IMG/VR virus record: IMGVR_UViG_2667527592_000002
Origin: a virus
Lineage: Duplodnaviria; Heunggongvirae; Uroviricota; Caudoviricetes
Strand: one strand, 5' to 3'
DNA length: 64,000 bases
Shown: positions 1,799 to 45,920 of the stretch, piece after piece
How the letters are laid out: the number at the start of each line of letters is the position of its first letter
How positions within the stretch are numbered: the first letter of the stretch is position 1
Program-made: the position numbers and the translations under genes
Notes under the pieces: model-generated
Databases searched by the model: none
Seen by the model: only the letters and a program-made list of their open reading frames with translations
Told to the model about the DNA's origin: nothing

Positions 1799-1814
1799 TA
1801 GTTTTCTAATATAA
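1799..1814 (+). promoter_or_regulatory. operator-like motif, variant copy (TAGTTTTCTAATATAA)
   Basis: Member of recurring asymmetric motif family; about 80 bp upstream of the 1890 operon. Confidence 0.35.
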
Positions 1815-1889
1815 TCATCTTTTTACCAGTCTATACAGTTTTAACATTCTCATTATCATCCCCTCGGTCATTTCCTGCCCGGGGGATTA

Positions 1890-2282
1890 ATGGAACAAAT
1901 CAGCAGCGCAGAAATTGCGGATATCATGATCAGGGCTGACTGCTATCTGACAGTCACTGAAATTACCACTCTCGCCAAAGAAAAATACCCTCATCTCCAT
2001 GTTTCACGAGTAAGTGTAACTAACATCATTCGTCATTTTGTTCGTTCAAGCAGGGCAATCTGTGAGCTGGATGATCGTGTGTATCCACGAAAATACTGGC
2101 TACATGGTCTGAACGGATATCAGTTCAAGGTGCGCGGGCGCACGCCTGAATACGGTAGCTTACTGGTTAAAAACTGTAGCAGGAAATCAGTCGAACAGGC
2201 GCGAAAAGAGCAACGAGAGCTGGTGGACATGGCGAATAAGCTGTGGAATGCCGCCGTTAAAAAGCGTGGTGTTGCTTTATGA
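1890..2282 (+). CDS. hypothetical protein (130 aa)
   Basis: ORF track; stop overlaps pacA-like start (ATGA). Confidence 0.5.
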   Translation: MEQISSAEIADIMIRADCYLTVTEITTLAKEKYPHLHVSRVSVTNIIRHFVRSSRAICELDDRVYPRKYWLHGLNGYQFKVRGRTPEYGSLLVKNCSRKSVEQARKEQRELVDMANKLWNAAVKKRGVAL

Positions 2283-3643
2283 GTCTGGTTAATTGGGAGG
2301 AGCACCGCGCCCGCTTTATAGCGTTGCGTGAAGAAAAAGGGATCACTGTAAAGGAATACTGTGAGGAGCATGGCCTTAGCTTCAATACAGCCAGAAAGCA
2401 TCTCAATATGAAAAAAAATGAGGTGCGGTCGCAGGTAAAGACAACAAAAAAAAGCACCAAATCACCTGAAAAAAAACGGGCGGGAAGAGCAACAAAAAAG
2501 CTGGAAGAGGGTGCAGAAAAAACAAAATTTACAGAAATTGACAATTCGCAGGGTGCAGGTTCTTTCCGAAGTATGCCAAGAAAGAAAACTTCGGATCATG
2601 AAAGTAATTCCAATAATAACAATGAGATAAAAGAATCTGTCAGGAGATCATTGCGCGAAAAAATGGCGAAAATGATCCCCGAAGAAGATAAAAGCGCCCC
2701 AAAAATTGAGGGATCTTCAGCAATGATCCCTGGCGGTGCTGTGCAACGTGCCACATTGCCCACTACGAATGTGGCTCGCGACATGATGAAGAACGGCGCA
2801 GAAGAACACCTGCGGTTAGCAATTCAAATGGCGCAAGAGCGCGCACTTCAGTATCAAAGCATTGTTGATCAGGAGGCCGAACGTCTACAGGCGGAAATAG
2901 ACGCCTTGGGCGATAAAGAGCCAGAAGGAATGCACCCTGGGCAGCGCCTTCTCGGTCTAATCAGTGACGCGGCCTACTACATGAATGATTTTATCAGTAG
3001 GTTGGCAGCTATATATCAGTCCGAACAAAAGCTGCGACAGGGGGATGAAAAGCTTCGTCAGAGCGCTCGCCAGCAAGCATTCAAAGAGGCTGAGGCCAGA
3101 GAAAAACTCGAATTAGCACGCCTACAGGCCGAACAGCGTGGCAAAGAGATTGAATATCGCATTGGCGCTGACGCACGCGCTGCCAGAGTTATCGCCGCCG
3201 CTATACGTATGCGTGAGCGCGAGGAACTGGATGATATCGGTGTTGCTGAATACATCGAGCGCCAGGGGGTCAGCGTCCCGGCTATCCTCGCGGCGCGCGC
3301 GGCGAAAGCTATCACTCTTCTCGAACCACCTGTTTCTGACGTCAATGATGTTGATGATGAACAGCTGGACAAAGAGGCAAGGGAGTTTGCAACGCTTCAG
3401 GCTAACCATCCGCAATGGCTGGCAGAGCGCCGGGCGGATGTGGCAACCATTGTTGAAGAATTGGGGTGCGGAGATTACGACCGCAATGGCGAGCGTAAAG
3501 CTGGAGAATTCGAGGCCAGCGACGAAGAGCTGGATATTGACCCTTCGGCAACGGCTGAAATTTACGGTGATTATGATGCATCTGATGCAGGGTATGACGC
3601 CGGAGATGATGATATCGCGATAGAACCGCCGGAGGATGATTAA
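2279..3643 (+). CDS. putative terminase small subunit (PacA-like), acidic C-terminus
   Basis: Immediately upstream of and overlapping the large terminase; N-terminal HTH-like segment; internal GATC cluster; assignment by position, not by recognised sequence. Confidence 0.45.
   Translation: MSLVNWEEHRARFIALREEKGITVKEYCEEHGLSFNTARKHLNMKKNEVRSQVKTTKKSTKSPEKKRAGRATKKLEEGAEKTKFTEIDNSQGAGSFRSMPRKKTSDHESNSNNNNEIKESVRRSLREKMAKMIPEEDKSAPKIEGSSAMIPGGAVQRATLPTTNVARDMMKNGAEEHLRLAIQMAQERALQYQSIVDQEAERLQAEIDALGDKEPEGMHPGQRLLGLISDAAYYMNDFISRLAAIYQSEQKLRQGDEKLRQSARQQAFKEAEAREKLELARLQAEQRGKEIEYRIGADARAARVIAAAIRMREREELDDIGVAEYIERQGVSVPAILAARAAKAITLLEPPVSDVNDVDDEQLDKEAREFATLQANHPQWLAERRADVATIVEELGCGDYDRNGERKAGEFEASDEELDIDPSATAEIYGDYDASDAGYDAGDDDIAIEPPEDD
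2594..2728. other. GATC cluster (5 sites in 135 bp), candidate pac-type packaging site
   Basis: GATC at 2594, 2646, 2674, 2712, 2725, mostly as TGATC[CT] hexamers; P1 pac lies within pacA and is built from Dam-methylated TGATC[AG] hexamers. Confidence 0.35.
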
Positions 3644-5151
3644 TGGCTGGCGGGCGCAAGATTAAATGCGTCACCAGCGATCCACGCTGGCGCGATATGG
3701 TAATCAAATACCGCTACAACTTTACCCAGGCTGTTGTCGATATTTTTGGGATGTTCCCCTCCCACCAGCAGCAGCAGATCATTCAGTCAGTGCAGGAAAC
3801 GGGGAGTAGGACGACCGTCACGTCCGGACACGGAACGGGGAAGTCGTCCCTTACCGCGATGTTGCTGTTGATTTTTATGATCCTGTTCCCCGATGCCCGT
3901 GTCATCATTGTTGCTAACAAGATAGGCCAGGTAAAAACAGGCGTATTCAAATACGTTAAACAGTATTGGGCGAATGCAGTTAAGCGTCATGGGTGGTTGC
4001 AGACCTATTTTGTCCTCTCTGACACCATGTTTTATGAGCGCTCCCGTAAGGGGATTTGGGAAGTTCTCTGCAAAGGTTATCGACTCGGCAACGAAGAAGC
4101 GCTGGCGGGGGAACACGCGGCACATTTGCTTCTAATTCTGGACGAAGCATCTGGTATATCTGATAAGGCGATCGGCGTAATGACCGGTGCTCTTACTGAA
4201 GAAGATAACCGGATGTTGATGCTATCCCAGCCAACAAGGCCAAGTGGTTATTTCTACGATTCGCACCATTCTCAAGCAAAAACCCCAGACAACCCGAAAG
4301 GGATCTGGACAGCAATTGTTCTTAACTCGGAAGAATCACCGTTCGTCACACCACAATTCATCAAGCAGAAGCTTCTGGAATATGGCGGGCGCGATTCTAT
4401 TGAGTACATGGTCAAGGTGCTTGGTCAGTTCCCACGAGAAATTAACGGCTATTTGCTTGGTCGTGATGAATGCGATCGCGCTGCTCGCCGCAAGGTGTTG
4501 TTGGAGAAAAACTGGGGATGGGTGGCAACGGCTGACGTTGGTAATGGGCGAGATAAGTCGGTCCTCAACATCTGCAAAGTATCTGGTCACAGGGATAAGC
4601 GGCGCGTTGTTAACTTTAAGGTAATGGAGATGCCTGGCACTATGGACCCATTGGCCTTTGCTGACTTCATATATAACGAATGTACGCCGGAAAAATACCC
4701 GAATATAACAATCGCGGTTGATGCTGATGGTTTTGGTTCTGATACGTGTGCGCAGTTGGTGCGTCGTGGTGCGAACCCGGTACGTATTCGGTGGGGAAAA
4801 CCCATGTTTGCGAACAAAGACAGGGAGCGATTTGTTAATCAGCGTGCCTACGCAAATATTATGGCGCGTGATGCCATAAAGTCAGGGCGTATGCGGATAG
4901 ACAGTGACCCTAAAACGGCAGAGCAAGCGTCAAAAATCCCCTTTTTACTGAATGAAGAAGGGAAAATGGCGATGATGCGCAAAGAGCACATGCGGCAAAA
5001 GCTAAACATCAAATCGCCTGACCGATGGGATACCTACTGCTTCACTATGCTGGTGGACTATGTGCCTGCTAATGAAGATATTGGTGCCGAAATGGCAACT
5101 TTCCGAGATCAGGTTCTGGCGGATATCGAAATGCCGGATCTGGATATATAA
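3643..5151 (+). CDS. terminase large subunit (PacB-like)
   Basis: 502 aa; Walker A SGHGTGKS, Walker B LLLILDEAS, C-terminal acidic nuclease-like region; start overlaps pacA stop. Confidence 0.7.
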   Translation: MAGGRKIKCVTSDPRWRDMVIKYRYNFTQAVVDIFGMFPSHQQQQIIQSVQETGSRTTVTSGHGTGKSSLTAMLLLIFMILFPDARVIIVANKIGQVKTGVFKYVKQYWANAVKRHGWLQTYFVLSDTMFYERSRKGIWEVLCKGYRLGNEEALAGEHAAHLLLILDEASGISDKAIGVMTGALTEEDNRMLMLSQPTRPSGYFYDSHHSQAKTPDNPKGIWTAIVLNSEESPFVTPQFIKQKLLEYGGRDSIEYMVKVLGQFPREINGYLLGRDECDRAARRKVLLEKNWGWVATADVGNGRDKSVLNICKVSGHRDKRRVVNFKVMEMPGTMDPLAFADFIYNECTPEKYPNITIAVDADGFGSDTCAQLVRRGANPVRIRWGKPMFANKDRERFVNQRAYANIMARDAIKSGRMRIDSDPKTAEQASKIPFLLNEEGKMAMMRKEHMRQKLNIKSPDRWDTYCFTMLVDYVPANEDIGAEMATFRDQVLADIEMPDLDI

Positions 5152-5178: not shown

Positions 5179-6216
5179 TTACCAGAGCTTCGCGGCGTAC
5201 TGCGTTTGGGGGAATGTGTATCCGTAACGTTCTTCGATTGCTTTGCCGTATTTTTTACGAGCTTCATTCAGTTTAATGCCGGTCAGGTCGTCTCCAGAGG
5301 CCATCATTACCTCTAACAATTCCAGATCCATTTTATCCAGCCTTGCCATTGCTTCACGTGATGTACGTATCTTACGCTCAATGATATGGCGAATAGCCGG
5401 ATCGGCATCCTCCAGCATCTTAGCGGATTTCTGCTTAAGGCTTTCATTGCGAATATCGATGTTCCTTAAGATGTACGACTTCGCAACGTAGCTTGGCTGG
5501 TGTTTTTCCAGGTCACGAACACGATATAAGTTAAAATCGCCGAGAAGGCTGCAAGGTACCGATTCGACGCCAGAATAAATTGTAATGCTCCGGCGTTCAC
5601 CAACATTATTGACAACGGGGATCGTTGTCTTCGGTAGTCTTGCGAAAACCAATGCGCCATGTGCGCCAACTCTAAAGCGAGAAAGGGCATTGCTGCCTTC
5701 GATGTTTGTTGTCAGCACAACATCTGTATATGCCTCTTTACGCGCCCGGTAGATCTCGCCTTCAGGCTCAGCTTCAAAGAAGCGCTGTTCTTCTTCAAGA
5801 GCGCCTACGATTTGAGAAAAAACCCTATTTTTCAGGCTTTTCTTTATGATTTTGTCGTATTTTTTGAGCAATTGTTCACGTGTAAATGTACGTGTTGTTG
5901 TAGCGCTTTGCACAACAACATGCGTGCTTTGATTGGTGTCCTCAATGATGAATGGGATCGGAGAATATACAGACTCAACAATGTTCGACGCTTTGCCGTC
6001 GGCATCGCGGCACATGTCAACGAAGGCTTTCCATTCAGCAAGACATTTTTCAGCTTCTTCTAATATGTTTTGGTCATGCGTTAATGCAACATGGCGGAAT
6101 TCCTCGCCAGCATAACTGGTATCATGGAAAACAGAGTTTGCGACCACCAGCTCTTTCCACCGTTCAGCGGTTTGCAGGAACCGTTTGTACTCTTTCTCGA
6201 TCGACTTCTTACTCAT
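5179..6216 (-). CDS. hypothetical protein (345 aa); candidate lysogeny regulator by position
   Basis: ORF track; ATG with AGGA RBS; operator-like motif 16-33 bp upstream; sits between terminase and lox-cre. Confidence 0.55.
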   Translation of the reverse strand: MSKKSIEKEYKRFLQTAERWKELVVANSVFHDTSYAGEEFRHVALTHDQNILEEAEKCLAEWKAFVDMCRDADGKASNIVESVYSPIPFIIEDTNQSTHVVVQSATTTRTFTREQLLKKYDKIIKKSLKNRVFSQIVGALEEEQRFFEAEPEGEIYRARKEAYTDVVLTTNIEGSNALSRFRVGAHGALVFARLPKTTIPVVNNVGERRSITIYSGVESVPCSLLGDFNLYRVRDLEKHQPSYVAKSYILRNIDIRNESLKQKSAKMLEDADPAIRHIIERKIRTSREAMARLDKMDLELLEVMMASGDDLTGIKLNEARKKYGKAIEERYGYTFPQTQYAAKLW

Positions 6217-6231
6217 TATTCCTACTCGATT

Positions 6232-6249
6232 TAGTTTTCTAACATAAAA
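6232..6249 (+). promoter_or_regulatory. operator-like motif (TAGTTTTCTAACATAAAA)
   Basis: Recurring asymmetric motif; overlaps promoter region of 5179..6216. Confidence 0.45.
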
Positions 6250-6425
6250 TTACTATGACAAATTTATGTCGAATAACAGAGTGAGTAAAGGATCGAACTG
6301 TGATTTTTTGTCATCAATTTTAGAAAACCAACCGTAGAAACCACACTTCGCAAATTAAAGACCATGAAGGCAACGTGTTACTGGTCATCATCAATCTATG
6401 ATGGATTTAAAAAAATCGGCATTTT

Positions 6426-6459
6426 ATAACTTTAAATAATTGGCATTATTTAAAGTTAG
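6426..6459. other. lox-like recombination site (13-bp inverted arms, 8-bp spacer)
   Basis: ATAACTTTAAATA-ATTGGCAT-TATTTAAAGTTAG; arms 12/13 complementary and about 10/13 identical to loxP arms; 150 bp upstream of cre-like gene. Confidence 0.7.
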
Positions 6460-6610: not shown

Positions 6611-7639
6611 ATGGGTGAATTAATTATCTCTGGCAGTTCCGGTGGTTTTCTGCGCAACATTGGCAAAGAGTACCAGGAAGCCGCAGAAAACTTTATGCGG
6701 TTCATGAATGACCAGGGGGCTTATGCGCCGAATACTCTGCGCGACCTCCGGTTGGTGTTTCATTCCTGGGCGCGCTGGTGTCACGCTCGCCAGCTTGCCT
6801 GGTTTCCGATCTCACCAGAAATGGCCCGCGAGTATTTTCTTCAGCTGCATGATGCCGATCTGGCTTCGACCACCATTGATAAGCACTACGCCATGCTGAA
6901 CATGCTGCTTTCGCATTGTGGCCTTCCGCCACTTTCGGATGATAAAAGTGTTTCTCTGGCTATGCGGCGCATCCGGCGCGAAGCAGCAACTGAAAAAGGC
7001 GAACGAACAGGCCAGGCTATACCGCTGCGGTGGGACGATCTGAAACTGCTCGACGTCCTGTTGTCCAGGTCAGAACGGCTGGTGGACCTGCGCAACCGGG
7101 CTTTTCTCTTTGTTGCATACAATACGCTGATGCGTATGTCGGAAATCTCGCGTATTCGTGTAGGAGATCTGGACCAGACAGGTGACACTGTCACGCTACA
7201 TATTTCACACACGAAGACAATAACGACCGCCGCCGGGCTTGATAAGGTGCTTTCCCGTCGCACTACCGCTGTGCTGAATGACTGGCTGGATGTTTCCGGG
7301 CTTCGCGAACATCCTGACGCAGTGCTGTTCCCGCCGATACACCGTAGCAATAAGGCCAGGATCACGACAACGCCCCTTACTGCACCTGCAATGGAGAAAA
7401 TATTCAGCGACGCCTGGGTGTTGCTGAATAAAAGAGATGCTACGCCAAACAAAGGAAGATACCGGACGTGGACCGGGCATAGTGCACGCGTCGGGGCCGC
7501 TATTGATATGGCTGAAAAGCAGGTGTCTATGGTGGAGATCATGCAGGAAGGAACCTGGAAGAAACCGGAAACACTTATGCGGTATCTTCGCCGTGGCGGC
7601 GTGTCTGTGGGGGCTAATAGCCGCCTGATGGATTCGTAA
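6611..7639 (+). CDS. cre: Cre-type tyrosine recombinase
   Basis: 342 aa; long collinear similarity to P1 Cre including GHSARVGAA...W...Y active-site region and NTLMRMSEISRIRVGD block. Confidence 0.9.
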   Translation: MGELIISGSSGGFLRNIGKEYQEAAENFMRFMNDQGAYAPNTLRDLRLVFHSWARWCHARQLAWFPISPEMAREYFLQLHDADLASTTIDKHYAMLNMLLSHCGLPPLSDDKSVSLAMRRIRREAATEKGERTGQAIPLRWDDLKLLDVLLSRSERLVDLRNRAFLFVAYNTLMRMSEISRIRVGDLDQTGDTVTLHISHTKTITTAAGLDKVLSRRTTAVLNDWLDVSGLREHPDAVLFPPIHRSNKARITTTPLTAPAMEKIFSDAWVLLNKRDATPNKGRYRTWTGHSARVGAAIDMAEKQVSMVEIMQEGTWKKPETLMRYLRRGGVSVGANSRLMDS

Positions 7640-7642
7640 ATT

Positions 7643-7658
7643 AAATTTCTAACACATC
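7643..7658 (+). promoter_or_regulatory. operator-like motif (AAATTTCTAACACATC)
   Basis: Recurring motif; just downstream of cre stop, upstream of 7713 operon. Confidence 0.4.
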
Positions 7659-7712
7659 TTTTTAGATTAACGCCTTTGCTGTAAAGTACCCTCGCCTATT
7701 TAGGAGGGTGCT

Positions 7713-9719: not shown

Positions 9720-10526
9720 ATGGAAAGCACCAAAACAATTCAATACCGCTTGCGTAATGGCCTGCTGGTGGCTGTTAACGCCGACATGTCACTGCCGTTT
9801 GACACGATTGAACGCACTATCATGACGTATCTCGGCTTTAATGAAGAACTGAATGAAGAGCATGGCGTAGCTATATGGAGTGATGCAGACAGCGGCGTTC
9901 GTCGTTACATCACCGCCAGGGGCAAAGACTACTCTCTGGAAGAACTGTTTGCCCTTGCGCAGTCTTTCGAATGTGTAGCATTAGACCTGTTTAATGATCC
10001 TGCTATAGCGCAACGACTTATACGCGAGCTTGGGCTATCCGTTACACCAATTATCTTTAAAAATGGCAGCCTGACTGGCACATGGCGCGTAGAACGCATC
10101 TCAAACTACCTTCCATATAACCGACAGTTAAATGGAGTAATCTCCGGCGTTAATCAGCCCGTAGCGTGTGAAAATGTAAATCTGGTTGTCGCTGTTTTGG
10201 CAACCGCATGTCGTGTTATCGGTTTGGCTAAACAGGCATTTATTCATTTCCCAAATGGTGCAGAAGGTAGCGCAGAGATTATCGCGTGTGATTTCGAATT
10301 TACCTGGATGCTACGCGAATATCTGGACCAAACAGTGTTCCGCGCCGAAGAACTGGATATGTATATCACGTCAACGATTCCTGATGATGTGCGTGCTGAA
10401 GCAATCGCCACAGCAAGGGCCAAATGCCGTGCGGCGATTGCAGAACAGGCCAAAGAAGAACAGTCCGATGAAGTCGCGGCAGATGTGGAGGCAGAGGTAG
10501 CGGAGGATGCTGATGCTGACGCCTAA
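9720..10526 (+). CDS. hypothetical protein, acidic C-terminus (268 aa)
   Basis: ORF track; GGAG RBS. Confidence 0.5.
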   Translation: MESTKTIQYRLRNGLLVAVNADMSLPFDTIERTIMTYLGFNEELNEEHGVAIWSDADSGVRRYITARGKDYSLEELFALAQSFECVALDLFNDPAIAQRLIRELGLSVTPIIFKNGSLTGTWRVERISNYLPYNRQLNGVISGVNQPVACENVNLVVAVLATACRVIGLAKQAFIHFPNGAEGSAEIIACDFEFTWMLREYLDQTVFRAEELDMYITSTIPDDVRAEAIATARAKCRAAIAEQAKEEQSDEVAADVEAEVAEDADADA

Positions 10527-11613
10527 AAACATCACCGAATTACCAGAGTGGAGAGAGCTGGTAAGCAAATATAGCCATGACTGGGCATTAGCAGCAGAAG
10601 AGTTGATGGGTGTTAAGTTAACCCACCAGCAAAAGCTAATTGTTGAGGCGATTCAACAAAAAGGTTCAGCAGTCAGCGTCACCACTCCTGAAGGGATAGG
10701 CCAAAAGACGGTTATCGCTATAATTAGTATTCTTTATACAATCCTGATGCCTGAGTCTAAAACGGTTATTGTTTCCCCAAAGTTCTATAATTGTCGCAGG
10801 CAAGTTATCCAATACATAAGTACGTATTGGGATAGAGTCAGTAACAGAATCCCATTGCTGGGAGAATATTTTAAAGTCGATGGAAACGGCATCAATCATC
10901 GTTACCGGGAATATTGGGGCTGCGAAATTAAGCCATATCACCGAAATTATGAGGAAGGTTTCGGTGGATATTATGCTGAACATCTTTTAATCATTGTTAC
11001 GGAGGCGGCTCTTGCTGGCGATCGGCTATTCAGCATGTTAAGAGCATCGTTAGTAAGTGACGATTCACGTATACTTTTAATGTCCGCTCCTTCAGAGGAG
11101 GAGCATGGACACTTTTACGATTCCCATCATGGTCGTGCTAAATCAGAAGAAAATCCATGTGGTATTTATACAGCCATCAAGCTGAACGCAGAAGATACCC
11201 CCATTATTTCTCAAGGTTATCTTGATAACATTGCAGAAATATATGGTGGTAAAAACAGCGATTACTACCGTCGTATGGTTCTTGGTGAGTTTCCTGGTAT
11301 TAGGGGGGCTGTTCTTGAATCAGATATGCCGAAGACAATGCGCTTTTCGATGCCTGATGGTAGTGAATGGATAATGCCATTACGAGTGATAGCCCGGCAT
11401 CATGCACAGCACCACGCCAAAAAACATGGCGTTACAACATTGGAGTGGTTGAAATCGCACACCATTCCACTCTTCACTGCAGATCACAATGCTATCGTTG
11501 AGTGGGCAAAAACAATTCCGTGGGAGAATGTTGCTGAATACGCCCACATGCTAAAACCGCCGAAAGACAGGCAAGAAATTAGCTGGCTGACAGCAGAAAA
11601 AATCATTGAGTGA
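10507..11613 (+). CDS. terminase-large-subunit-like ATPase-domain paralogue with degenerate Walker motifs, no nuclease domain
   Basis: 368 aa; collinear blocks shared with 3643..5151 (HLLII.TEA, RILLMS.P, GHFYDSHH, YGG, GEFP); Walker A GIGQKT, Walker B IVTE. Confidence 0.6.
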   Translation: MLMLTPKNITELPEWRELVSKYSHDWALAAEELMGVKLTHQQKLIVEAIQQKGSAVSVTTPEGIGQKTVIAIISILYTILMPESKTVIVSPKFYNCRRQVIQYISTYWDRVSNRIPLLGEYFKVDGNGINHRYREYWGCEIKPYHRNYEEGFGGYYAEHLLIIVTEAALAGDRLFSMLRASLVSDDSRILLMSAPSEEEHGHFYDSHHGRAKSEENPCGIYTAIKLNAEDTPIISQGYLDNIAEIYGGKNSDYYRRMVLGEFPGIRGAVLESDMPKTMRFSMPDGSEWIMPLRVIARHHAQHHAKKHGVTTLEWLKSHTIPLFTADHNAIVEWAKTIPWENVAEYAHMLKPPKDRQEISWLTAEKIIE

Positions 11614-24416: not shown

Positions 24417-24995
24417 ATGCAGAAACAGAGCTATTGGGAGAAACAGAGACAAAAAGCCATGCAAAAATTGGCTGACCCGGCCTGGCGAGAGGAACAAAGG
24501 GCAAAGCGCCTTCAACAAGCTCAACGCCAGCAGCAGCGAGCGAGAGAAAAAGCCGCATCGCCTGAATATCGGCAAAAAAAAATTGAAAAAGCAAAGCAAT
24601 ATGACCAGCGGAGAAAAGAGAAAGCTGTATCCGCTCCGTCCAAAAAAACACGCACGTCACGCGGCCTGAAGGGCAGATCACTCACAGCCGATGAGCGCCG
24701 GATACAGACCGCTATCGGTACTCTCCCCTGCATTGCCTGCCATATTCACGGGCAACATAGCCCAGTAGTATCCCTGCACCATATCTTCGGGAGAACGGCA
24801 GAGAACGCGCATAAATATGTCCTCCCTTTGTGTAAATGGCACCACCAGTACGCAGCGCCAGCCGAGGTCCGAGAACAATATCCCTGGCTGGTCCCTGTTC
24901 ATGCTGATGGAAAAATAGGCGGAAAAGCAGATTTCATACGGCACAATGCCGATGAAATGGCGTTGTATCAGATGGCAATTGAATTGATAAATTAG
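24417..24995 (+). CDS. Ref-like HNH-motif protein with basic disordered N-terminus
   Basis: 192 aa; K/R/Q-rich N-terminal half, C-terminal CIACHIHGQH ... HHIFG ... CKWHH; resembles P1 Ref architecture. Confidence 0.5.
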   Translation: MQKQSYWEKQRQKAMQKLADPAWREEQRAKRLQQAQRQQQRAREKAASPEYRQKKIEKAKQYDQRRKEKAVSAPSKKTRTSRGLKGRSLTADERRIQTAIGTLPCIACHIHGQHSPVVSLHHIFGRTAENAHKYVLPLCKWHHQYAAPAEVREQYPWLVPVHADGKIGGKADFIRHNADEMALYQMAIELIN

Positions 24996-25010
24996 TTTTC
25001 TAACATTTTA
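24993..25010 (+). promoter_or_regulatory. operator-like motif (TAGTTTTCTAACATTTTA)
   Basis: Overlaps stop codon of ref-like gene. Confidence 0.45.
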
Positions 25011-28367: not shown

Positions 28368-28582
28368 GTAAACAAAATGAAGTTTTATGTTATAAAAACA
28401 ATTAACTACATCAACATGATTTAGGCCAAATTTCGGTCAAAAAATAAAATCCACAAAAAGTGGTTGACACTATTTTGGAAATCACAAACTACACATAATC
28501 CATCGCGCTAACGGCTCCCGTTGAAGGTTCTTTTGACGATTAACTTTCAGCCGAAGCGCGGTAGGGAGTCATAACGCCAAAG

Positions 28583-32317: not shown

Positions 32318-32320
32318 GAT

Positions 32321-33560: not shown

Positions 33561-34324
33561 CTTCAAATAAAACCCTCCTGGCGCGAACAGGTGAATGGCA
33601 AACCTCACGCACAGGAAAATTCCAGACCACGGGCTTTGAAAGCGTGGATAACGCGTTTGCTACGCTAATCAGCAATATCTTTTCTGATATCTTACTGGTG
33701 GCCCCCGCGCCGGAAGAAAAACGCTTTGCGTCATTCCTGAATCGTCCACCAGCAGAGCGTGTCTATGTGGCCCGTTTCGACAATGCGATCGAGTTTCTTA
33801 AAGCAGTTCGTCGCGCAAATGCCGGGCAAGGGAGAAAACCTGAAAACCAGAACATTAACCGGGATGCTCTCCCCCTGGTCAATATCTCACGCACTATGGA
33901 TATCAATTATATCAACGATGATCAGCAGATTGACCGCAAAAAAGTAGCCAGTTTTTGCGAACCGGATACCGGAATGCCTTTAGCAGAACTGGAATACACC
34001 CAGGCCATTCTGACGTATGACGTTACGTTAATGGCAACTGATAAAGCGACCATGAGTCTGATGTGTAATTCGCTGGGCGCACGGCTTCGCCTGATGACAG
34101 GTACACAATTTGAAGCAACCACTCACCTTGTTCGTGTCCCGGTCCCGCTGATTTGCTCGATACAGGATGCCAAAGAAGTCGGCTTTACGGATGTTTCAGC
34201 ACCAATTGGAGAAGAGCGTATTTATGCCACACAAGCGCCGATAAGTGTGATTGCAGACGTGATCACAGCATGGGAGTTGGACGCAAAACGTATTATTACC
34301 GAAACCTCGATATCTATGGGGTGA
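33557..34324 (+). CDS. hypothetical protein (possible baseplate component)
   Basis: ORF track; ATGA overlap; upstream of spike gene. Confidence 0.45.
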   Translation: MTSNKTLLARTGEWQTSRTGKFQTTGFESVDNAFATLISNIFSDILLVAPAPEEKRFASFLNRPPAERVYVARFDNAIEFLKAVRRANAGQGRKPENQNINRDALPLVNISRTMDINYINDDQQIDRKKVASFCEPDTGMPLAELEYTQAILTYDVTLMATDKATMSLMCNSLGARLRLMTGTQFEATTHLVRVPVPLICSIQDAKEVGFTDVSAPIGEERIYATQAPISVIADVITAWELDAKRIITETSISMG

Positions 34325-34327
34325 TAA

Positions 34328-35308: not shown

Positions 35309-35958
35309 AGCGTAGAGCGCAAATTGTTGGAACTGTGCACCCGGCAGGGCTTATGCGTGCTCAAGTCCGTGTTTTACCTGACTGGAATGGCGTTCCTGAT
35401 GACGATCTCCCATGGGCAGAATACCTGTTACCCATAGGTAACGCGTTTGTACCTACAGTAAAAGGCGACCTAGTATGGGTAGAGTTTCCTTATCTGGATG
35501 TTAATGGTCGAATTGATACCAGACGCCCAATGATAGTTGGCGCGGCTCAGGATGCGCCAGGCGGAATTCCAAACGTTGCACCAGAAGCATCTGGCAAAGG
35601 CAACGGCTGGACGCCGCCGGAAGTAGATGGAGCACCTCCCCGCCCCCAAATCTCAGCAACGAAAGACTTCGTTATTCACCGCAACAATATTCTTGAAGTA
35701 CGAACTGCTGGTGGCGGCTATGAAATTGCCAATACGGCAGCTGGCTCAAGGATTGGCATGAATGAGTCCGGGCAGATATATATCATTGGTCCGGCTGATG
35801 TAATCGTGAATGCAGGAGGGAGTGTTAACGTCAAATCAGCCAACAACATCAATGTTAATGGGGAAAATATAGCTGTCACCGCTAACGGGGACATAGCTTT
35901 CAAGGCAGGAGGAACCTTTCAGGCCACTGCTGGCAACTTCGATTTCAAGAAAGGATAG
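35305..35958 (+). CDS. baseplate spike protein (gpV-like OB domain plus beta-helix repeats)
   Basis: N-terminal VGTVHP ... DLPWAEYLLPIG ... GDLVWVEFPYLD; Gly/Asn/Val-rich C-terminal repeats. Confidence 0.55.
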   Translation: MKRRAQIVGTVHPAGLMRAQVRVLPDWNGVPDDDLPWAEYLLPIGNAFVPTVKGDLVWVEFPYLDVNGRIDTRRPMIVGAAQDAPGGIPNVAPEASGKGNGWTPPEVDGAPPRPQISATKDFVIHRNNILEVRTAGGGYEIANTAAGSRIGMNESGQIYIIGPADVIVNAGGSVNVKSANNINVNGENIAVTANGDIAFKAGGTFQATAGNFDFKKG

Positions 35959-35968
35959 AAAACGCACC

Positions 35969-36010
35969 CATTTGTGTTAGATAATTAACATGCATTTTCT
36001 AACACAAATG
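35969..36010. promoter_or_regulatory. inverted pair of operator-like motifs (13-bp perfect arms CATTTGTGTTAGA / TCTAACACAAATG)
   Basis: Arms 16 bp apart; right arm ends 8 bp before rdgC start. Confidence 0.5.
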
Positions 36011-36017
36011 GTGAGAC

Positions 36018-36923
36018 ATGAGATCAGTCGCTTTCAAAAATATCTTCATCTATCGTCTTTCACGCGAAGTTAACTGGGATACCGCAGAAGTAAATGCTGC
36101 CCTTAGCAAGTTTGTGTTTACCCCATGCGGTTCTCAGGATATTGCTAAAGCTGGTTGGACCCCCGTCCTTGGCGACAACCTCACCCATGAATACAAGGGT
36201 TTTCTTCTGATACAGCATAAACGAGAGGAAAAAATCCTACCTTCTCAAGTGCTCAAAGAAGAGCTACAGAAAAAAATCCTGAAACTTGAAGAAGAACAAG
36301 ACAGAAAGCTGAAGAAGACCGAAAAAGATTCGCTGAAGGATGAAGTGCTTCACTCTCTTCTTCCTCGTGCTTTCACGAGAAAATCAGTCGCTAAAATCCT
36401 GATAGACCGAAGCAATCATCTGGTTTTTGTCGAGGCGAGCAGTGCTAAAAAAGCAGAGGATCAGCTGGCTTTGTTACGGAAATCTCTTGGCAGCTTGCCC
36501 GTTGTCCCCTTCTCTCCGAAAGACCCATTAGAACTGACCATCACTGGCTGGATTAAAAATGGCTTCCCGAACGGTTTCCGTGCCGGTGAGGAAGCGACCT
36601 TAAAAGCATTGCTTGATGATGGCGGCGCGGTCCGCTGCAAAAAAGTGGACCTGCTATCCGACGAGATCATGAGTCATATAGAAGCTGGTAAGGTTGCAAC
36701 CACAGTTGCGGTTAACTGGCAAGACCGTGCATTTTTCAGACTGAATGACGATATGAGTATCAAGGCTTTGTCGTTCAGCGACGAATTGTACGACCAGAAC
36801 GACGATATTGATCGAGAGGATGTTGCTCAACGATTTGACGCTGACTTTATCCTGTTTACTGCTGAATTATCAGCGATGTTCACTTCGCTGGTGGAGGCCG
36901 TTGGTGGTGAAGCAGAACGTTAA
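36018..36923 (+). CDS. rdgC: recombination-associated protein RdgC
   Basis: Collinear with E. coli RdgC as I recall it: [45 protein letters not shown]. Confidence 0.85.
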
Positions 36924-36936
36924 CAATAGACCTCTT

Positions 36937-37587
36937 ATGGTGAGTCTTTGTGATTTCACGGGGAAAATGGTCGCCCCCTGGCTGGAGCATGGTATAGATG
37001 CTGTTATCGTCGATCCACAACACGCAAAGACCACAGATGAGCTGATGCAATCAGGCGCAGTTCTGACACGTATCAGTGCGATTATCGATAGTGATGAAGT
37101 TTATGCTTTTCTCCGAAATAATTTACAACGTATTGTGTTTTTAGCTGGTTTTCCGCCGTGCACGGACCTTGCTGTTTCCGGTGCGCGCTGGTTTGCACAT
37201 AAGGCTGACAAAGATCCGGTTTTCCAGTTCAAAGCGATGCAAGTCGTCTGGCAGTGTTACGACATTGCAAAGATGATTGGTTGCCCGTACATGATTGAAA
37301 ACCCGGTCAGCCAAATATCGACATTCTGGCGTAAACCTGATCACATCTTCCATCCTTACCACTTCACTGCATATTGCAAGGAAGACAATTACACCAAAAA
37401 AACATGCCTCTGGAGCGGGCAGGGCTTTGTCATGCCTGATGCCCTAATGGACGAATCATTAGGCAAGCCAGATAACAGAATCCATACCGCGCCACCTGGG
37501 CCTGAAAGGGCTAATTTTCGAAGTGCTACTCCGAATGGATTCGCAAAAGCAGTTTTCGAAGCAAATAAGGGGGTGCTCTATGAGTAA
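36937..37587 (+). CDS. short DNA (cytosine-5) methyltransferase-like protein
   Basis: GFPPC (PC catalytic motif), MIENPV (ENV motif); only 217 aa, no obvious target-recognition domain. Confidence 0.45.
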   Translation: MVSLCDFTGKMVAPWLEHGIDAVIVDPQHAKTTDELMQSGAVLTRISAIIDSDEVYAFLRNNLQRIVFLAGFPPCTDLAVSGARWFAHKADKDPVFQFKAMQVVWQCYDIAKMIGCPYMIENPVSQISTFWRKPDHIFHPYHFTAYCKEDNYTKKTCLWSGQGFVMPDALMDESLGKPDNRIHTAPPGPERANFRSATPNGFAKAVFEANKGVLYE

Positions 37588-38485
37588 ATCTCTAGTAAGC
37601 ACAGCCATAGAAAGACATGATTCGATGGCGGAAATTAGCTATATGCGCACCATTCGGACTCCGGATGAATACGAGCGTCCGATCTTCAAATGGGTAGGCG
37701 GTAAATTTTCAGAGTTGCCTATAGTGCTTGAGCATCTACCACACGGTAAGCGGTTAATAGAACCATTCGTTGGTGGCGGTTCCGTATTTACGAATGCAGG
37801 ATTTCGCCACAACCTGCTTAATGATATTAACGGTGACTTGATTAACTTCTATCAGACATTGCAGCGAGAAAGACATTCTCTAGTCACGCTGTCATATAGT
37901 TTTTTCCAAAATTACAACAACGCTGACGCTTACCTCGAAGTGCGTGAGGCATTTAACAGAGGAAAGTATGACCAACTACATCATGCTGCTGCCTTTTTGT
38001 ACCTTAATCGGCACTGTTTTAATGGCGTAACACGGTACAACCAAAATGGCGAGTTCAACGTAGGGTATGGTAAATACAAAGCGCCCTACTTCCCACATGC
38101 AGAGATGGAGGCATTTTTGGCTGATGACGTACTCAAAAACACTTCCTTTGTATCAGGTGACTTTGCTGGCGTCATCGAGGCGGCTGGTGAAGGCGATGTG
38201 ATTTTTTGCGATCCGCCGTATGAACCGCTGCCGGATACAGAAGGGTTTACCAGTTATTCAGGAAATAGCTTCCGTTTCGACGAACAGAAACGGCTGGTAT
38301 CTCTATTGGTGGAAGCCCACCAGCGCGGCGCTAAGGTAGTGATTACAAATAGTGGTGCTCCAAACATCCGTGAACTATATGAAGGAAACGGGTTTAAAGT
38401 ACATCATATGGCAGCCAGACGGTCGGTTTCCTGCAAGGCGTCAACACGTGTAGTTGCTAACGATATAATTGCAATAATGAAGTAA
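37580..38485 (+). CDS. Dam-family DNA adenine methyltransferase
   Basis: KWVGGK, EPFVGGGSVF and DPPY motifs; start overlaps upstream stop. Confidence 0.85.
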   Translation: MSKSLVSTAIERHDSMAEISYMRTIRTPDEYERPIFKWVGGKFSELPIVLEHLPHGKRLIEPFVGGGSVFTNAGFRHNLLNDINGDLINFYQTLQRERHSLVTLSYSFFQNYNNADAYLEVREAFNRGKYDQLHHAAAFLYLNRHCFNGVTRYNQNGEFNVGYGKYKAPYFPHAEMEAFLADDVLKNTSFVSGDFAGVIEAAGEGDVIFCDPPYEPLPDTEGFTSYSGNSFRFDEQKRLVSLLVEAHQRGAKVVITNSGAPNIRELYEGNGFKVHHMAARRSVSCKASTRVVANDIIAIMK

Positions 38486-38486
38486 A

Positions 38487-38516
38487 AAACGCCGCAGTAG
38501 CGGCGTTTACTTTTTC
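38487..38516. terminator. bidirectional rho-independent terminator between dam-like and glnS
   Basis: AAACGCCGC-AGTA-GCGGCGTTT with T-runs on both strands. Confidence 0.6.
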
Positions 38517-38533
38517 ATGTGGCGAAATACCTA

Positions 38534-40195
38534 TTAACCTAACTTCGCCCAGGTATCACGCAGCCCAACGGTGCGGTTAAATACCGGTTTTTCCGCCGTA
38601 GAATGGCGGCTGTCGAGGCAGAAATAACCTTCACGCTCAAACTGGAATGCTTTACCCGCTACCGCTTCTTTCAGCGACGGTTCAGCAAAGCCTTGTTTGA
38701 TCACCAGCGATTCCGGGTTAATCACCGACAGGAAATCATCCGCAGCACCTGGGTTCGGTACACTGAACAGACGGTCGTACAGGCGAATTTCAACCGGCAG
38801 CGCATGTGCCGCGCTCACCCAGTGAATAACGCCTTTCACTTTACGACCATCTGCCGGATCTTTGCTTAAGGTGTCGGCGTCATAAGTACAGAAGATGGTG
38901 GTGATATTGCCTTCGGCATCTTTCTCCACGCGTTCAGCCTTAATGACGTAAGCATTACGCAGACGCACTTCTTTACCCAGCACCAGACGTTTGTACTGCT
39001 TGTTAGCTTCTTCGCGGAAATCGGCGCGGTCGATCCAAATCTCACCGCTAAACGGCACCTGACGGCTACCCATTTCCGGTTTGTTTGGATGGTTCGGCAT
39101 GGTGACCATTTCGCCTTCGCCCTGGTAGTTTTCGATAACCAGTTTCACCGGATCGATAACCGCCATTGCGCGCGGGGCATTTTCGTTGAGATCTTCACGG
39201 ATGCAGGATTCCAGCGACGCCATCTCAATGGTGTTGTCCTGCTTGGTCACGCCGATGCGTTTGCAGAACTCACGAATAGAAGCCGCAGTGTAACCACGAC
39301 GACGCAGACCGGAAATGGTCGGCATACGCGGGTCATCCCAGCCTTCAACGTGCTTGTCGGTCACCAGCAGGTTCAGCTTACGCTTGGACATCACGGTGTA
39401 TTCCAGATTCAGGCGCGAGAATTCGTACTGGCGCGGGTGAACAGGAATGGTGATGTTGTCCAGTACCCAGTCATACAGACGACGGTTGTCCTGGAACTCA
39501 AGCGTACACAGAGAGTGCGTAATACCTTCCAGCGCATCGCTGATGCAGTGGGTGAAGTCGTACATCGGGTAGATGCACCACTTGTTGCCAGTCTGGTGGT
39601 GTTCAGCAAACTTAATACGGTACAGCACCGGGTCGCGCATCACGATAAACGGCGAAGCCATGTCGATTTTCGCACGCAGGCAGGCTTTACCTTCTTCAAA
39701 ACCACCGGCACGCATTTTTTCGAACAGCGCCAGGTTCTCTTCAACGCTGCGGTCGCGGTACGGGCTGTTTTTACCCGGCTGCGTCAGGGTGCCGCGGTAT
39801 TCGCGGATCTGTTCCGGCGTCAGTTCGTCAACATACGCCAGGCCTTTGTTGATCAGTTCAACAGCATAGGCATGGAGTTTGTCAAAATAATCGGAGGAGT
39901 AACGGATGTTGCCAGACCAGTGAAAACCTAACCATTCAACGTCGTTTTTAATCGACTCAACGTACTCGATATCTTCTTTTACCGGGTTAGTGTCGTCGAA
40001 ACGCAGGTTGCACTGGCCTTTATAGTCCTGGGCGATCCCGAAGTTCAGGCAGATAGATTTCGCATGACCAATATGCAGATAGCCATTCGGTTCCGGCGGG
40101 AAACGGGTATGTACTGTGGTGTGCTTACCACTGGCCAGATCTTCATCGATGATCTGACGAATAAAGTTAGTCGGGCGGGCTTCTGCCTCACTCAT
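38534..40195 (-). CDS. glnS: glutaminyl-tRNA synthetase
   Basis: 553 aa; near-identical to E. coli GlnRS from memory ([17 protein letters not shown]...; HIGH in YLHIGHAKS; MSK in VMSKRKL). Confidence 0.95.
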
Positions 40196-40369
40196 TGTGG
40201 ATTCCTCAAAGCGTAAACAACGTATAACAGCGTATGATCTTATAAGCCGAATAGGCTGACAACCACTAGTTGATTAGAAATTGCTTTCTATCGTTATTTC
40301 AATAATGAGCTTTTTCATGAAGCCCACTTTTGCGCATAAGTAAATTAATGATAAATGGTACACAATCGG

Positions 40370-40428
40370 AACCAAAAAGGATGTAAAGGTGCACCAAATT
40401 AGTGGTGTATTGGTACACCTTTGGTTCA
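40370..40428. promoter_or_regulatory. long imperfect palindrome (GGTGCACC / GGTGTA..TACACC), candidate centromere or terminator
   Basis: AAAGGTGCACC ... GGTACACCTTT inverted arms with outer GAACCAAA / TTTGGTTC. Confidence 0.3.
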
Positions 40429-40463
40429 AGACTTTTTAAGTTCTAAAACCAACCTGAAAGACT

Positions 40464-40751
40464 TTATTTTGCTTCCTCAGACTCCGCTAACATGAGGATA
40501 GCATGGCGGATCATATTCAATTTGCTGCGATTATGCTTTTTACTTAACGCATCAAGTACTTGGTACTCGTATTCATTGAAACCAACACGAATAGATTTAA
40601 AATCACGTGGAGCGTCCTTATCGAGCACTTTGTTGTCTTCTGGTTGCTCACCCGGCACCAAATCAGCCTTACTGGCAAAATCCTCAATTCGGCGTTCAAG
40701 ATCGGGGTCTTTTACTTCGGGGGCTTTTACCGATTTACGAGGCTTAATCAC
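40464..40751 (-). CDS. ribbon-helix-helix centromere-binding protein (ParG-like)
   Basis: 95 aa; C-terminal RHH-like RVGFNEYEYQVLDALSKKHNRSKLNMIRHAIL; overlaps parA stop. Confidence 0.6.
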   Translation of the reverse strand: MIKPRKSVKAPEVKDPDLERRIEDFASKADLVPGEQPEDNKVLDKDAPRDFKSIRVGFNEYEYQVLDALSKKHNRSKLNMIRHAILMLAESEEAK

Positions 40752-41385
40752 TTAATAACTCCTTAACCAACATCTGGATTTCACCTTTAGCTTTCCCGTT
40801 GTCCATCTCAACAACGCCCTTCCCTTCAGCCATGCAATCGCGGTAAACCTTACGATCACGAATGATGGTTTTCAGCAACTTCAGTTGCGGATATTCAGCC
40901 AGGTACTCTTTGGCCTCATTAGTTTCATTCACAACCGGATTGGATGGGGCCATTGTTAAGACTGCGAACGCCTTAATGCTAGGATTAGGCATCAGGTCCA
41001 AAGCCTCTTCAAACACTTCAACAAAGTGTGCCAGCGTGTCTAAATCTGGTTGAGATGGTCTGAATGGGACCAACACAATATCTGCAGCGGTTATGCCTGT
41101 ACGCATCTCTTTGCTATCGCGCCCGGCTGTATCAACAACTACAAATTCATAACGCTTATCCAGATCGAGAAGTGTTTCTCGAATATTACCAAACTTCTGG
41201 ACACAATGAATTACAGGAGAAACCTCTGCCGTGTTACGGTCAGCTGCCCAGCGGGCAGCTGTTCCTTGCTTGTCTGCATCTAGTAACACTACATCCTTAT
41301 TTGCGCGGGCAAGCTCCGCACAGATGTTTACGCTTGTGGTTGATTTTCCACAGCCACCTTTTTGGCTGACTACCAATATAATCAT
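40744..41385 (-). CDS. parA: ParA-family partition ATPase (small type Ib, ParF-like)
   Basis: Deviant Walker A SQKGGCGKST, VVVDTAG Walker B; ATG 41385 after GAGGAA RBS. Confidence 0.85.
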   Translation of the reverse strand: MIILVVSQKGGCGKSTTSVNICAELARANKDVVLLDADKQGTAARWAADRNTAEVSPVIHCVQKFGNIRETLLDLDKRYEFVVVDTAGRDSKEMRTGITAADIVLVPFRPSQPDLDTLAHFVEVFEEALDLMPNPSIKAFAVLTMAPSNPVVNETNEAKEYLAEYPQLKLLKTIIRDRKVYRDCMAEGKGVVEMDNGKAKGEIQMLVKELLSD

Positions 41386-41625
41386 ATCCGTTCCTCGGTG
41401 TGATTTTGGTATCAAAACGGTTCCAGATAAGAGCCTTTTTGATGCGGGACAGGCTCTATAATGGAGTCATGAATGTTTGGCAAAGTATAACATCAATCAG
41501 ACCAAATACACCTTATATTGCATCCTATTTAACACGAAATCAGCCCTAAATTGGAACCAGATACAAAATTGCACCATAACAGCACCTAACTGGTGCCAGA
41601 TTAACACTAATTAGACACCATTAAG

Positions 41626-41654
41626 GCATAAAAAAGGCTGCAATTTGCAGCCTT
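41626..41654 (-). terminator. rho-independent terminator downstream of parR
   Basis: AAGGCTGCA-ATT-TGCAGCCTT perfect 9-bp stem; T5 follows on minus strand. Confidence 0.6.
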
Positions 41655-41672
41655 ACACCAGCACATCTTCTG

Positions 41673-42017
41673 TCAATCAGGTAGAGAGTCAGCCAGATTG
41701 CGCGCCGACGCGCTTTTGGCAACAACTTGCTCCTTCACTGGCTCAATGGAGGCAGGGCGCTCCTCAACCGCAGCTGGTAGTTCCAGGAAGGATGCCAGCA
41801 TTTTTCGGATCAGCTCCGGGTTGTTGTCTTCGGTCAGCAGGGAAGCCAGTAATCCTGGAAGCCTGCTATCGACTTCTCCCAGCGCAAGCCCTGCCAACAA
41901 TGCGGTTCTTGCCATATCGCTATGTTTTTTTATCTTCTCGCTCGCCGCCTTTTCATTGGCATAAGCCTCTGGGCGAAGATAAATCATCACTTTCTTACGT
42001 TCCTGAGACATGGACAT
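41673..42017 (-). CDS. parR: ParR-like adaptor (type II partition)
   Basis: 114 aa directly downstream of parM; ARTALLAGLALG resembles ParR N-terminal region. Confidence 0.6.
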   Translation of the reverse strand: MSMSQERKKVMIYLRPEAYANEKAASEKIKKHSDMARTALLAGLALGEVDSRLPGLLASLLTEDNNPELIRKMLASFLELPAAVEERPASIEPVKEQVVAKSASARNLADSLPD

Positions 42018-45480: not shown

Positions 45481-45496
45481 TTTGTCCCTTGTTTAC

Positions 45497-45889
45497 TCAT
45501 TGTCGCCATGCATTTTTTAACTCAGGAATATCTGCCATTTCAATTAACTTGCGAAGTCCAGCACTGACTTTCCCATTGCCAACCATAGCAAGCCAATCTC
45601 TTACAGCTTTCGGCATGTAGAGCGTTGCAGTTACCGGCTCTTCAACCCTGGCAGGACATCCGCATACAGGCCATTTAATTGATTCCATAACTTCGGATGC
45701 CGGGGTGAGGGCGGGGACATTGAGTATATCTCTACCAGAAAACTGGATAACGATCCGTTCAGCGAGCGAGAGTATCTCACTTTCGGCAAGAATTGATGCC
45801 AACTGCGCCTCAACAAGAAAGCGACTTGTTGTGTTCAGAGAGTGGCTCTTAGCGCCATTTTTATACGAAACAAAGATTCGATACGCCAT
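45497..45889 (-). CDS. hypothetical protein (130 aa)
   Basis: ORF track; operator-like motif 12-31 bp upstream. Confidence 0.45.
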   Translation of the reverse strand: MAYRIFVSYKNGAKSHSLNTTSRFLVEAQLASILAESEILSLAERIVIQFSGRDILNVPALTPASEVMESIKWPVCGCPARVEEPVTATLYMPKAVRDWLAMVGNGKVSAGLRKLIEMADIPELKNAWRQ

Positions 45890-45900
45890 AACTCTAATGA

Positions 45901-45920
45901 TTTGTGTTAGAAAACTAAAA
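45901..45920 (-). promoter_or_regulatory. operator-like motif (minus strand TTTTAGTTTTCTAACACAAA)
   Basis: Recurring motif between divergent 45889 and 46048 genes. Confidence 0.45.

Follow-up and report, generated by a model that had tools for sequence, protein, structure and literature searches.

To what regulatory protein do the copies of a short asymmetric DNA motif belong when they are scattered between the genes of a phage genome? We asked this of a 64,000-nucleotide stretch (the window, at its full length) of a tailed phage of the Caudoviricetes (IMG/VR record IMGVR_UViG_2667527592_000002), for which an earlier note, made from the letters alone, had listed copies of such a motif and likened them to the operators of the C1 repressor of phage P1. 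The window belongs to a relative of Escherichia phage D6 (MF356679), a plasmid prophage distantly related to P1, whose record gives P1 counterparts for most genes. Judged from sequence, the copies are very probably the operators through which the master repressor of lysogeny in this D6-like phage-plasmid acts, namely the C1 homologue encoded at 5179-6216. The set is most likely the D6-lineage version of the known P1 C1-type system, not a new kind of system.

Motif counts, orientation and pairing

The 14-mer TTTTCTAACAYAAA occurs four times exactly in the window (6235+, 24335-, 35995+ and 45901-; 0.01 expected), and eight times when up to two mismatches are allowed (1.3 expected), a count that none of 100 shuffles reached. 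The motif thus lies far above chance, as had been claimed. The accompanying figure of eight to nine copies of a 14-mer was loose, because only four copies are exact and the eight found at ≤2 mismatches are partly other sites: 28384- is included, which had not been listed, and 7643 and 24993 drop out, each having a perfect core and three mismatches in the 3′ tail. Every position listed earlier does hold a real copy of the motif, 0-6 nt from the start assigned to it. An unbiased k-mer count led to the same sequences: TTAGTTTTCTAA is the most frequent 12-mer of the window, and at k = 10-11 the motif is the top family after Chi.

The copies share the consensus AwTTAGTTTTCTAACAYAAA, in which TTCTAAC(A) is invariant; the informative positions span ~17 nt and contain no internal dyad. 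A 21-nt position matrix was built from nine copies. Its scores were bimodal, with 11 sites at 15-29 bits (threshold ≥15 bits; 0.3 expected from Markov shuffles) and a few at 9-12 bits, a count that is partly circular because nine of the scored sites are the training set. The strong sites are 1796+, 6229+, 7639+, 19730-, 19749+, 24334-, 24990+, 28383-, 35970-, 35989+ and 45900-, and three weak sites (1777-, 6313- and 24353+) lie next to strong ones. Independent checks on the matrix come from the core count and from the relatives described below. The 8-mer core TTCTAACA is present seven times, and all seven copies fall in the 8.6% of the window that is non-coding, outside long open reading frames (ORFs; binomial P = 4e-8).

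The earlier note had itself raised an AT-rich, low-complexity background as a possible source of the motif. The intergenic DNA is somewhat AT-richer (42.5% GC), and at ≤3 mismatches the 14-mer is found 19 times against 15.3 in shuffles, which is not above chance and leaves that count uninformative. The explanation fails because dinucleotide shuffles of the intergenic DNA alone fall far below the observed counts, giving 0.27 copies of the core (maximum 4 in 1000 shuffles) against 7, and 0.09 matrix matches against 10. With the exact and two-mismatch counts given above, and the core kept at orthologous spots of relatives, chance or base composition is a vanishingly improbable origin.

The copies had been described as always intergenic, which holds except at cre and ref, whose stop codons are overlapped by 1-6 nt, and as close to operon starts, which is also the case: all strong sites but 6229+, which faces away from c1, are co-oriented with a gene that starts 9-125 nt downstream. 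The described scatter in both orientations survived in part. The sites are dispersed, but their orientations are not random, because each strong site runs with the gene that it precedes.

At four loci the sites form head-to-head double sites in a 19-nt register (1777-/1796+, 19730-/19749+, 24334-/24353+ and 35970-/35989+), so spaced that the centres of TTAGA and TCTAA are 21 bp, or two helical turns, apart. The pair before rdgC, reported earlier as a perfect 13-bp inverted pair, was confirmed as an 18-nt inverted repeat that is 94% complementary and has a 14-nt perfect part. Such pairs might work in RNA, where a hairpin could prevent read-through or cover a ribosome-binding site, and not as DNA bound by a protein. 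As RNA, the rdgC pair (35965-36013) is indeed predicted to form a stable hairpin (-20.5 kcal/mol, z -5.3), with its 3′ arm extending to the ribosome-binding site, and the pair between ppp and pdcB folds weakly (z -3.0). However, the ref pair folds no better than shuffles, seven strong single sites show no folding at all (z ~0 to +0.5), and there is no U-run behind the rdgC hairpin. The conserved unit is, moreover, the asymmetric half-site and not the stem; relatives show the opposite of compensatory changes that would preserve pairing and alter the TCTAAC core. We therefore consider hairpins a very unlikely function of the motif, although the one at rdgC could add translational or read-through control at this single locus.

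A C1 homologue and the operators of phage P1

The candidate repressor is a protein of 345 amino acids encoded on the minus strand (5179..6216), 99.7% identical to D6 orf1, 'prophage repressor'. It matched P1 C1 with 21% identity over 240 amino acids (BLASTP, E 3e-8), and PHROG 1678 takes in both the window protein and P1 C1 (E 4e-170 and 3e-140). It is the sole P1-C1 match in the window, and each relative examined likewise has one. Its gene lies between pacB and a lox-like site followed by the cre/dre recombinase gene (6611-7639), which is the position of immC in P1. The inverted repeat TAACTTTAAATAATTGGCATTATTTAAAGTTA at 6427-6459, between c1 and the recombinase gene, corresponds to the site annotated as rox in D6, so the 'cre' homologue is a Dre-type recombinase. 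The C1 family is small, with 84 representatives at E ≤1e-3 among 1.84 billion proteins, and its conservation is in the N-terminal ~245 residues. A tblastn search with the window C1 returned 149 plasmid records, in identity classes of ~100, 89, 80, 68-70 and 28-31%. No family in Pfam matched the protein, and it had no sequence relatives in the PDB, whether searched as a single protein or by profile.

How do the sites compare with those of P1? In P1, 22 asymmetric 17-bp operators are dispersed over the genome and C1 controls repL and lpa (PMC8546580); its control extends to ref, ssb, dmt, kilA and ban (PMC4713147). The P1 GenBank/RefSeq record annotates the operators one by one, before ref, mat, ssb, c4-icd-ant, kilA-repL, rlfA, uhr-hrdC-dmt, ban, 26/pmgL, ppp, pmgR/S, pmgT, lpa and c1/coi. 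In the window, the motif precedes orthologues of lpa, ref, c4-icd-ant, hrdC-dmt, pdcB-pmgT and c1, and is also found in the divergent region beside mat. Copies occupy the same places in D6, which has further ones outside the region covered by the window: before repL, before a second icd-ant module and around pmgR/pmgS. The P1 operators at orthologues of these genes are Olpa (before lpa), Oref, Oc4 (before c4-icd-ant), Omat (at the ref end), Odmt (before uhr-hrdC-dmt), OpmgT, OrepL and OpmgR. The whole D6 genome holds 15 sites by core-anchored refinement.

Extraction of the annotated P1 operators gave back the consensus ATTGCTCTAATAAATTT, which the earlier note had given correctly (it agrees with the operators of the P1 record and with PMC8546580) and which differs from the window motif. 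This P1/P7 consensus has no match in the window at ≤3 mismatches, and a search for the motif over the element and over P1, as had been suggested, found the 11 strong sites here and no D6-type site at ≥15 bits in P1. Aligned on TCTAA, the P1 operator reads ATTGC-TCTAA-TAAATTT and the window operator TTAGTTT-TCTAA-CAYAAA. Since ATTGCTCTAATAAATTT is unmatched, and only TCTAA and a few flank positions are shared, the system is homologous to that of P1 but of different specificity, and the element is not a member of the P1/P7 immunity group. This is the pattern expected of homologous repressor-operator systems whose specificity has diverged. The proposal of a P1 C1-related repressor with altered specificity therefore appears well founded, as judged from the C1 homologue, the orthology of the target genes and the lack of cross-matching sites.

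The nearest known system is the C1 repressor of P1 with its scattered monovalent and divalent operators, which make up the ImmC branch of the tripartite immunity of P1 and P7. The likeness to P1 goes beyond the repressor and its synteny with pacB and a lox-type site. Both systems have an asymmetric site of 17-21 bp in many copies genome-wide, share the targets lpa, ref, c4-icd-ant, hrdC-dmt, pmgT and c1 (and, in D6, repL and pmgR/S), and place a c4 RNA-icd-antirepressor module past one operator. They also share the TCTAA core and its polarity toward the downstream gene, the single operators of P1 likewise being co-oriented with their genes when aligned on TCTAA. There are differences. The window repressor is 62 amino acids longer, with a C-terminal helical extension of ~100 amino acids in the predicted model, and the window antirepressor is of the Rha type. 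In P1 Obanab, two operators stand tail-to-tail with centres 13 bp apart, whereas the double sites of the window are head-to-head with centres 21 bp apart.

In a D6-like plasmid of S. dysenteriae (C1 69.5% identical), TTTCTAAC is kept at all orthologous intergenic spots and the flanks have diverged; the ref and lpa pairs there consist of two good half-sites each, with the 21-bp spacing kept. The G of TTAGTTTTCTAAC is changed to A or T at at least three orthologous sites of this plasmid, which hints at a small parallel shift. Site by site, those at 6229 and 7639 are kept in D6, in the S. dysenteriae plasmid and in pK91 (NZ_CP029871), a conjugative plasmid with a remnant of the element that includes c1. 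D6 and the S. dysenteriae plasmid both retain the 45900 site and the two halves of the 19730 double site, and in these two elements the core of the 35970-36009 site is kept with diverged flanks.

More distant relatives have motifs of their own. In the Leclercia plasmid pE1_003 (C1 31% identical), 17 of the 22 copies of TTCTAA fall in the 15% of the DNA that is non-coding, with the consensus TaA.agtaATTCTAAgG (AGTAAT-TCTAA-GG). The sites there precede ref and rdgC, and there are three between c1 and cre and one just past cre (84062, 84206, 84395 and 85455 are among them). In the Pantoea plasmid pPA-MXU-90 (C1 28% identical), the non-coding DNA, 13% of the total, holds 34 of 83 TCTAA copies (P = 4e-10). 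The motif there has the consensus A.TCTAAgg.ttttt, and a variant of it again stands just after cre. This plasmid also has double sites of the form TCTAA-N8-TTAGA with centres 13 bp apart (32113/32126, 33513/33526 and 83192/83205), which is the geometry of P1 Obanab. The four C1 clades (P1, D6, Leclercia and Pantoea) thus have a common TCTAA core, clade-specific flanks and two double-site geometries.

Could a protein other than C1 bind these sites? The window encodes other DNA-binding proteins, such as the Rha/HTH_24 protein (26022-26963) and HigA-type antitoxins, so that a phage protein (a Rha/KilA-type winged-helix antirepressor, a HigA antitoxin or an Xre-like protein) might be the binder, as might host IHF, Fis or H-NS. 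The motif is AT-rich, as are many sites of nucleoid proteins, and the ref regulatory region of P1 is bound also by H-NS (PMC4713147). However, an invariant 8-mer core and 15-29 bits per site go far beyond the sites of nucleoid proteins, the flanks vary with the C1 clade in four lineages, and the pK91 remnant, which has kept c1, retains the c1-proximal and post-cre sites. The sites also coincide gene for gene with the annotated C1 operators of P1, with the same TCTAA core and polarity, which makes another binder unparsimonious. We regard it as unlikely, and infer that C1 binds these sites and represses on binding.

Sites at individual loci

The site next to c1 (6229..6249, +; 28.3 bits) lies 13 nt upstream of the c1 start codon and is oriented against c1. 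The -10 of a predicted c1 promoter (TTTTAT, 6249-6244) overlaps its 3′ end, and we take it as a candidate autoregulatory operator of c1. A weak site (6313..6333, -; 11.9 bits), co-oriented with c1 and 97 nt upstream of it, stands 84 nt from the 6229 site; its TTTAGAAAACC block is kept in four of four relatives and the adjoining bases have diverged. At lpa, the gene of the late-promoter activator (1890-2282; Pfam BPP1_LPA, E 5e-57), a strong site with the variant core TTCTAATA (1796..1816, +; 24.2 bits) ends 74 nt before the gene, and its weak partner half-site (1777..1797, -; 10.2 bits) has the 19-nt offset of the other pairs. The post-cre site (7639..7659, +; 23.9 bits) overlaps the stop codon of cre/dre and lies 54 nt before the orf117-orf116-dut-isaA operon.

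The double site at 19730-19750 (-, 26.8 bits) and 19749-19769 (+, 15.4 bits) occupies the gap between ppp and pdcB(DUF968)-pmgT, 38 nt before pdcB, and a predicted promoter (-35 TTGATT, -10 TATTTT) spans its minus-strand site. A second double site, 24334-24354 (-, 26.8 bits) with the weak 24353-24373 (+, 9.3 bits), separates the divergent orf88-DUF4406 (-) from ref (24417-24995, +), the gaps being 26 nt from 24334- to orf88-DUF4406 and 44 nt from 24353+ to ref. The next site (24990..25010, +; 24.9 bits) heads the isrK-c4-icd-ant immunity region, overlapping the stop codon of ref and lying 125 nt before the first ORF. Rfam placed isrK at 25542-25620 (62.5 bits), directly upstream of the C4 antisense RNA at 25665-25752 (76.7 bits). 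This RNA, icd (25807-26022, 63% identity to P1 icd) and the antirepressor gene (26022-26963) form an ImmI module downstream of this site. In D6, the second icd-antirepressor module lies outside the window.

The site at 28383..28403 (-, 18.8 bits; core TTATAACA) is 16 nt before an ORF of unassigned function (27744-28367), divergent from mat (28594-29289); D6 has the same site before a simB-like gene. The double site at 35970-35990 (-, 24.8 bits) and 35989-36009 (+, 23.1 bits) fills the gap between baseplate gene 5 and rdgC(hrdC)-dcm-dmt (36018-38485; rdgC matched Pfam RdgC, E 1e-101), and 35989+ ends 9 nt before the rdgC ATG. The strongest site of all (45900..45920, -; 28.8 bits) is 11 nt before orf52-orf53, to which no function is assigned, and divergent from the major capsid gene 23 (46048-47745); just upstream of it is a predicted promoter with -35 TTAACA and -10 TTTAAT.

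A simple scan for the sigma-70 consensus gave promoter-like hexamers, co-oriented with the sites, that overlie or adjoin several of them. The promoters are plausible at 19730, 24334, 45900 and 6229, and weak at 7639 and 35970. At 19730 and 24334, TTGATT in the 5′ flank of the motif is the -35 of the scan. We also tried the motif itself as a -35 element, as CTAACA matches TTGACA at four of six positions, but rejected this since a start at rdgC, orf52 or ORF 27744 would lose the ribosome-binding site.

Might the motif instead play the part of the P1 -22 box and mark late promoters that Lpa activates? Lpa is encoded in the window, the conserved box of P1 late promoters is likewise dispersed over the genome, and one site lies in the divergent region beside capsid gene 23. 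Yet the motif precedes early or lysogeny genes (lpa, c1, ref, c4-icd-ant and rdgC-dmt) and does not occur ahead of the operons for tail, head and baseplate. The TTCTAACA sites at rdgC, orf52 and ORF 27744-28367 end 9-16 nt from the start codon, too close for a -22 box. Late operons carry a different motif, AAATCACA, which is followed ~7 nt on by a -10-like hexamer in 13 copies against 3.7 expected, and lies upstream of mat, gene 7, gene 23, pmgB-sit and R-S (28479, 32708, 45923, 45978, 54610 and 61986, all +). It looks like the D6-lineage version of the Lpa-dependent late promoter of P1; the P1-type -22 box AAGTGACTT itself has a single copy, at 29503 (-). A late-promoter role for the operator-like motif is thus extremely improbable, and that the lineage has an operator set distinct from its late-operon motif supports the assignment of the former to a repressor.

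If the sites are C1 operators, the plasmid prophage would carry C1 on ~11 strong sites in the window and on ~15-17 in a whole D6-type genome. Each site would lie on or just downstream of a sigma-70 promoter, co-oriented with the gene that follows. Occupancy by C1 would switch off lpa, and with it all late genes, together with the divergent ref and orf88 units, the c4-icd-antirepressor operon, rdgC-dcm-dmt and pdcB-pmgT. It would also silence the post-cre dut operon and the two units of unassigned function and, in D6 beyond the window, repL and the pmgR/S region. C1 would regulate its own gene through the site 13 nt from the c1 start and the weaker site 84 nt away. The operators are not annotated in the D6 GenBank record, and no account of C1 operators in D6 was found in a literature search that did not extend to the D6 genome paper (Gilcrease and Casjens 2018).

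Predicted repressor fold and the element itself

What kind of protein would bind an asymmetric site? An AlphaFold model of the window C1, made from an alignment of 65 C1 sequences, had a mean predicted local distance difference test score (pLDDT) of 94.8 and a predicted template modelling (TM) score of 0.81. Its only fold match was Tus, so that the predicted structure is Tus-like in three dimensions; a search of BFVD with the model gave no significant match. Tus is a monomer that clamps the asymmetric Ter site with inter-domain beta-strands. The family-invariant C1 residues R41, R157, R159 and G187 fall in predicted beta-strands, and a Tus-like, monomeric reading of the operator is therefore a reasonable one on this model; the asymmetry of the sites fits a monomer-binding repressor. 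Tus and C1 differ in that Tus is a replication-fork trap, whereas C1 represses transcription and has many sites on a phage genome. The Ter core (GTTGTAACTA) was also compared with the operator sequence, and their resemblance was unconvincing. No paper linking C1 and Tus was found in the literature search, although the link may have been noted elsewhere.

We offer tentatively, and as more doubtful than not, the wider proposal that the C1-family repressors of phage-plasmids are Tus-fold, monomeric, polar DNA clamps. On this proposal, the beta-strand arginines R41, R157 and R159 would contact the TCTAA core and the clade-specific flanks would set immunity specificity. The polarity of the operator would be functional, bound C1 acting as an orientation-dependent roadblock to RNA polymerase reading in from the upstream gene. 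Five of the junctions with sites are co-directional (orf5/lpa, cre/orf117, ppp/pdcB, ref/c4 and gene 5/rdgC). Helicases, which Tus stops at Ter, might be halted by the C1 clamp as well.

Several points weigh against the interpretation set out here. The matrix was trained on sites that it scores, the promoters are predictions of a simple scan for the consensus, several of them weak, and the c1-proximal site 6229+ breaks the orientation rule. Searches by tblastn with P1 Coi and Lxc detected no homologue in the window, in D6 or in the plasmids of S. dysenteriae and Pantoea (no match to the window or to D6 had E <0.3, though very small or diverged analogues could escape such a search), and the c1-cre interval contains no ORF of ≥60 amino acids; the circuit therefore differs from that of P1. 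Motif and repressor vary together among clades whose whole genomes have also diverged, which confounds the comparison, and a search for a mosaic element combining a D6 backbone with a foreign c1 found none. For the fold, the likeness to Tus comes from a predicted model and the TM-scores are moderate (0.37-0.44). Sequence similarity between Tus and C1 is not significant: hhalign gave a probability of 6-8.5%, pairing C1 53-188 with Tus 115-260 and the conserved 'RE..IL' of C1 with 'RDEVL' of Tus, and a profile search of PDB sequences with C1 did not find Tus. Pfam Ter (PF05472) was the only family matched by more than one of the 65 C1 members searched, but it was matched by just two, at E 0.012 or worse, and the window C1, without a match, falls outside the Ter family by sequence. 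The profile-profile comparison gained nothing, because every Tus homologue among the 120 matches listed had ≥81% identity with the E. coli protein.

The element itself is a D6-like phage-plasmid, with 96-99% identity between the window and D6 along most of the window. Over 12 kb (30000-42000), identity is 96.6% with D6 and reaches 99.2% with plasmids of Salmonella and E. coli. As a whole the window is collinear with D6 in reversed orientation at 92-98% identity, and it differs in being a mosaic variant with segments swapped at 9-18 kb, 21-23 kb and 27-28 kb. Next to c1, pacA and pacB occupy 2279-5151 (pacB 3643-5151). An ORF of 368 amino acids (10507-11613, +), 34-36% identical to the terminase subunit PacB of P1 and of D6, may be a second, diverged pacB-like gene; it is within a segment missing from D6 and is the last in the operon that begins at the post-cre operator. 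Iteron arrays (TTGAGGGCAATTTTTACA) at 53367-53520 and 54305-54403 flank a RepB/RepA-like initiator gene (53525-54313, -), and this region (53367-54403) is the plasmid replication origin and copy-control region. A full-length glutaminyl-tRNA synthetase gene, glnS (38534-40195, -), is present also in D6, and there is a tRNA gene at 284-356. Chi (GCTGGTGG) is heavily over-represented: its 9-mer TGCTGGTGG/CCACCAGCA occurs 23 times (for example at 198, 1651, 3762 and 5048) and leads the k-mer table. The Leclercia relative has the same excess, and Chi enrichment is a known trait of P1.

E. coli, Salmonella and Shigella commonly harbour D6-like phage-plasmids, and ~150-170 complete plasmid records carry this c1 or this rdgC region. 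For these elements, the operator set would delineate the C1 regulon of the lineage, in which several genes of unassigned function are likely to be early or lytic genes. Immunity groups should be predictable from sequence, since the site sets of P1 and D6 exclude each other, and the operators would offer handles for engineering through titration and derepression. The comparison of four clades provides material for studying how repressor specificity evolves. A Tus-like fold, if confirmed, would explain the asymmetric sites of this repressor family, and would tie the 35-year-old puzzle of a monomeric repressor on an asymmetric operator to the fold of a replication terminator.

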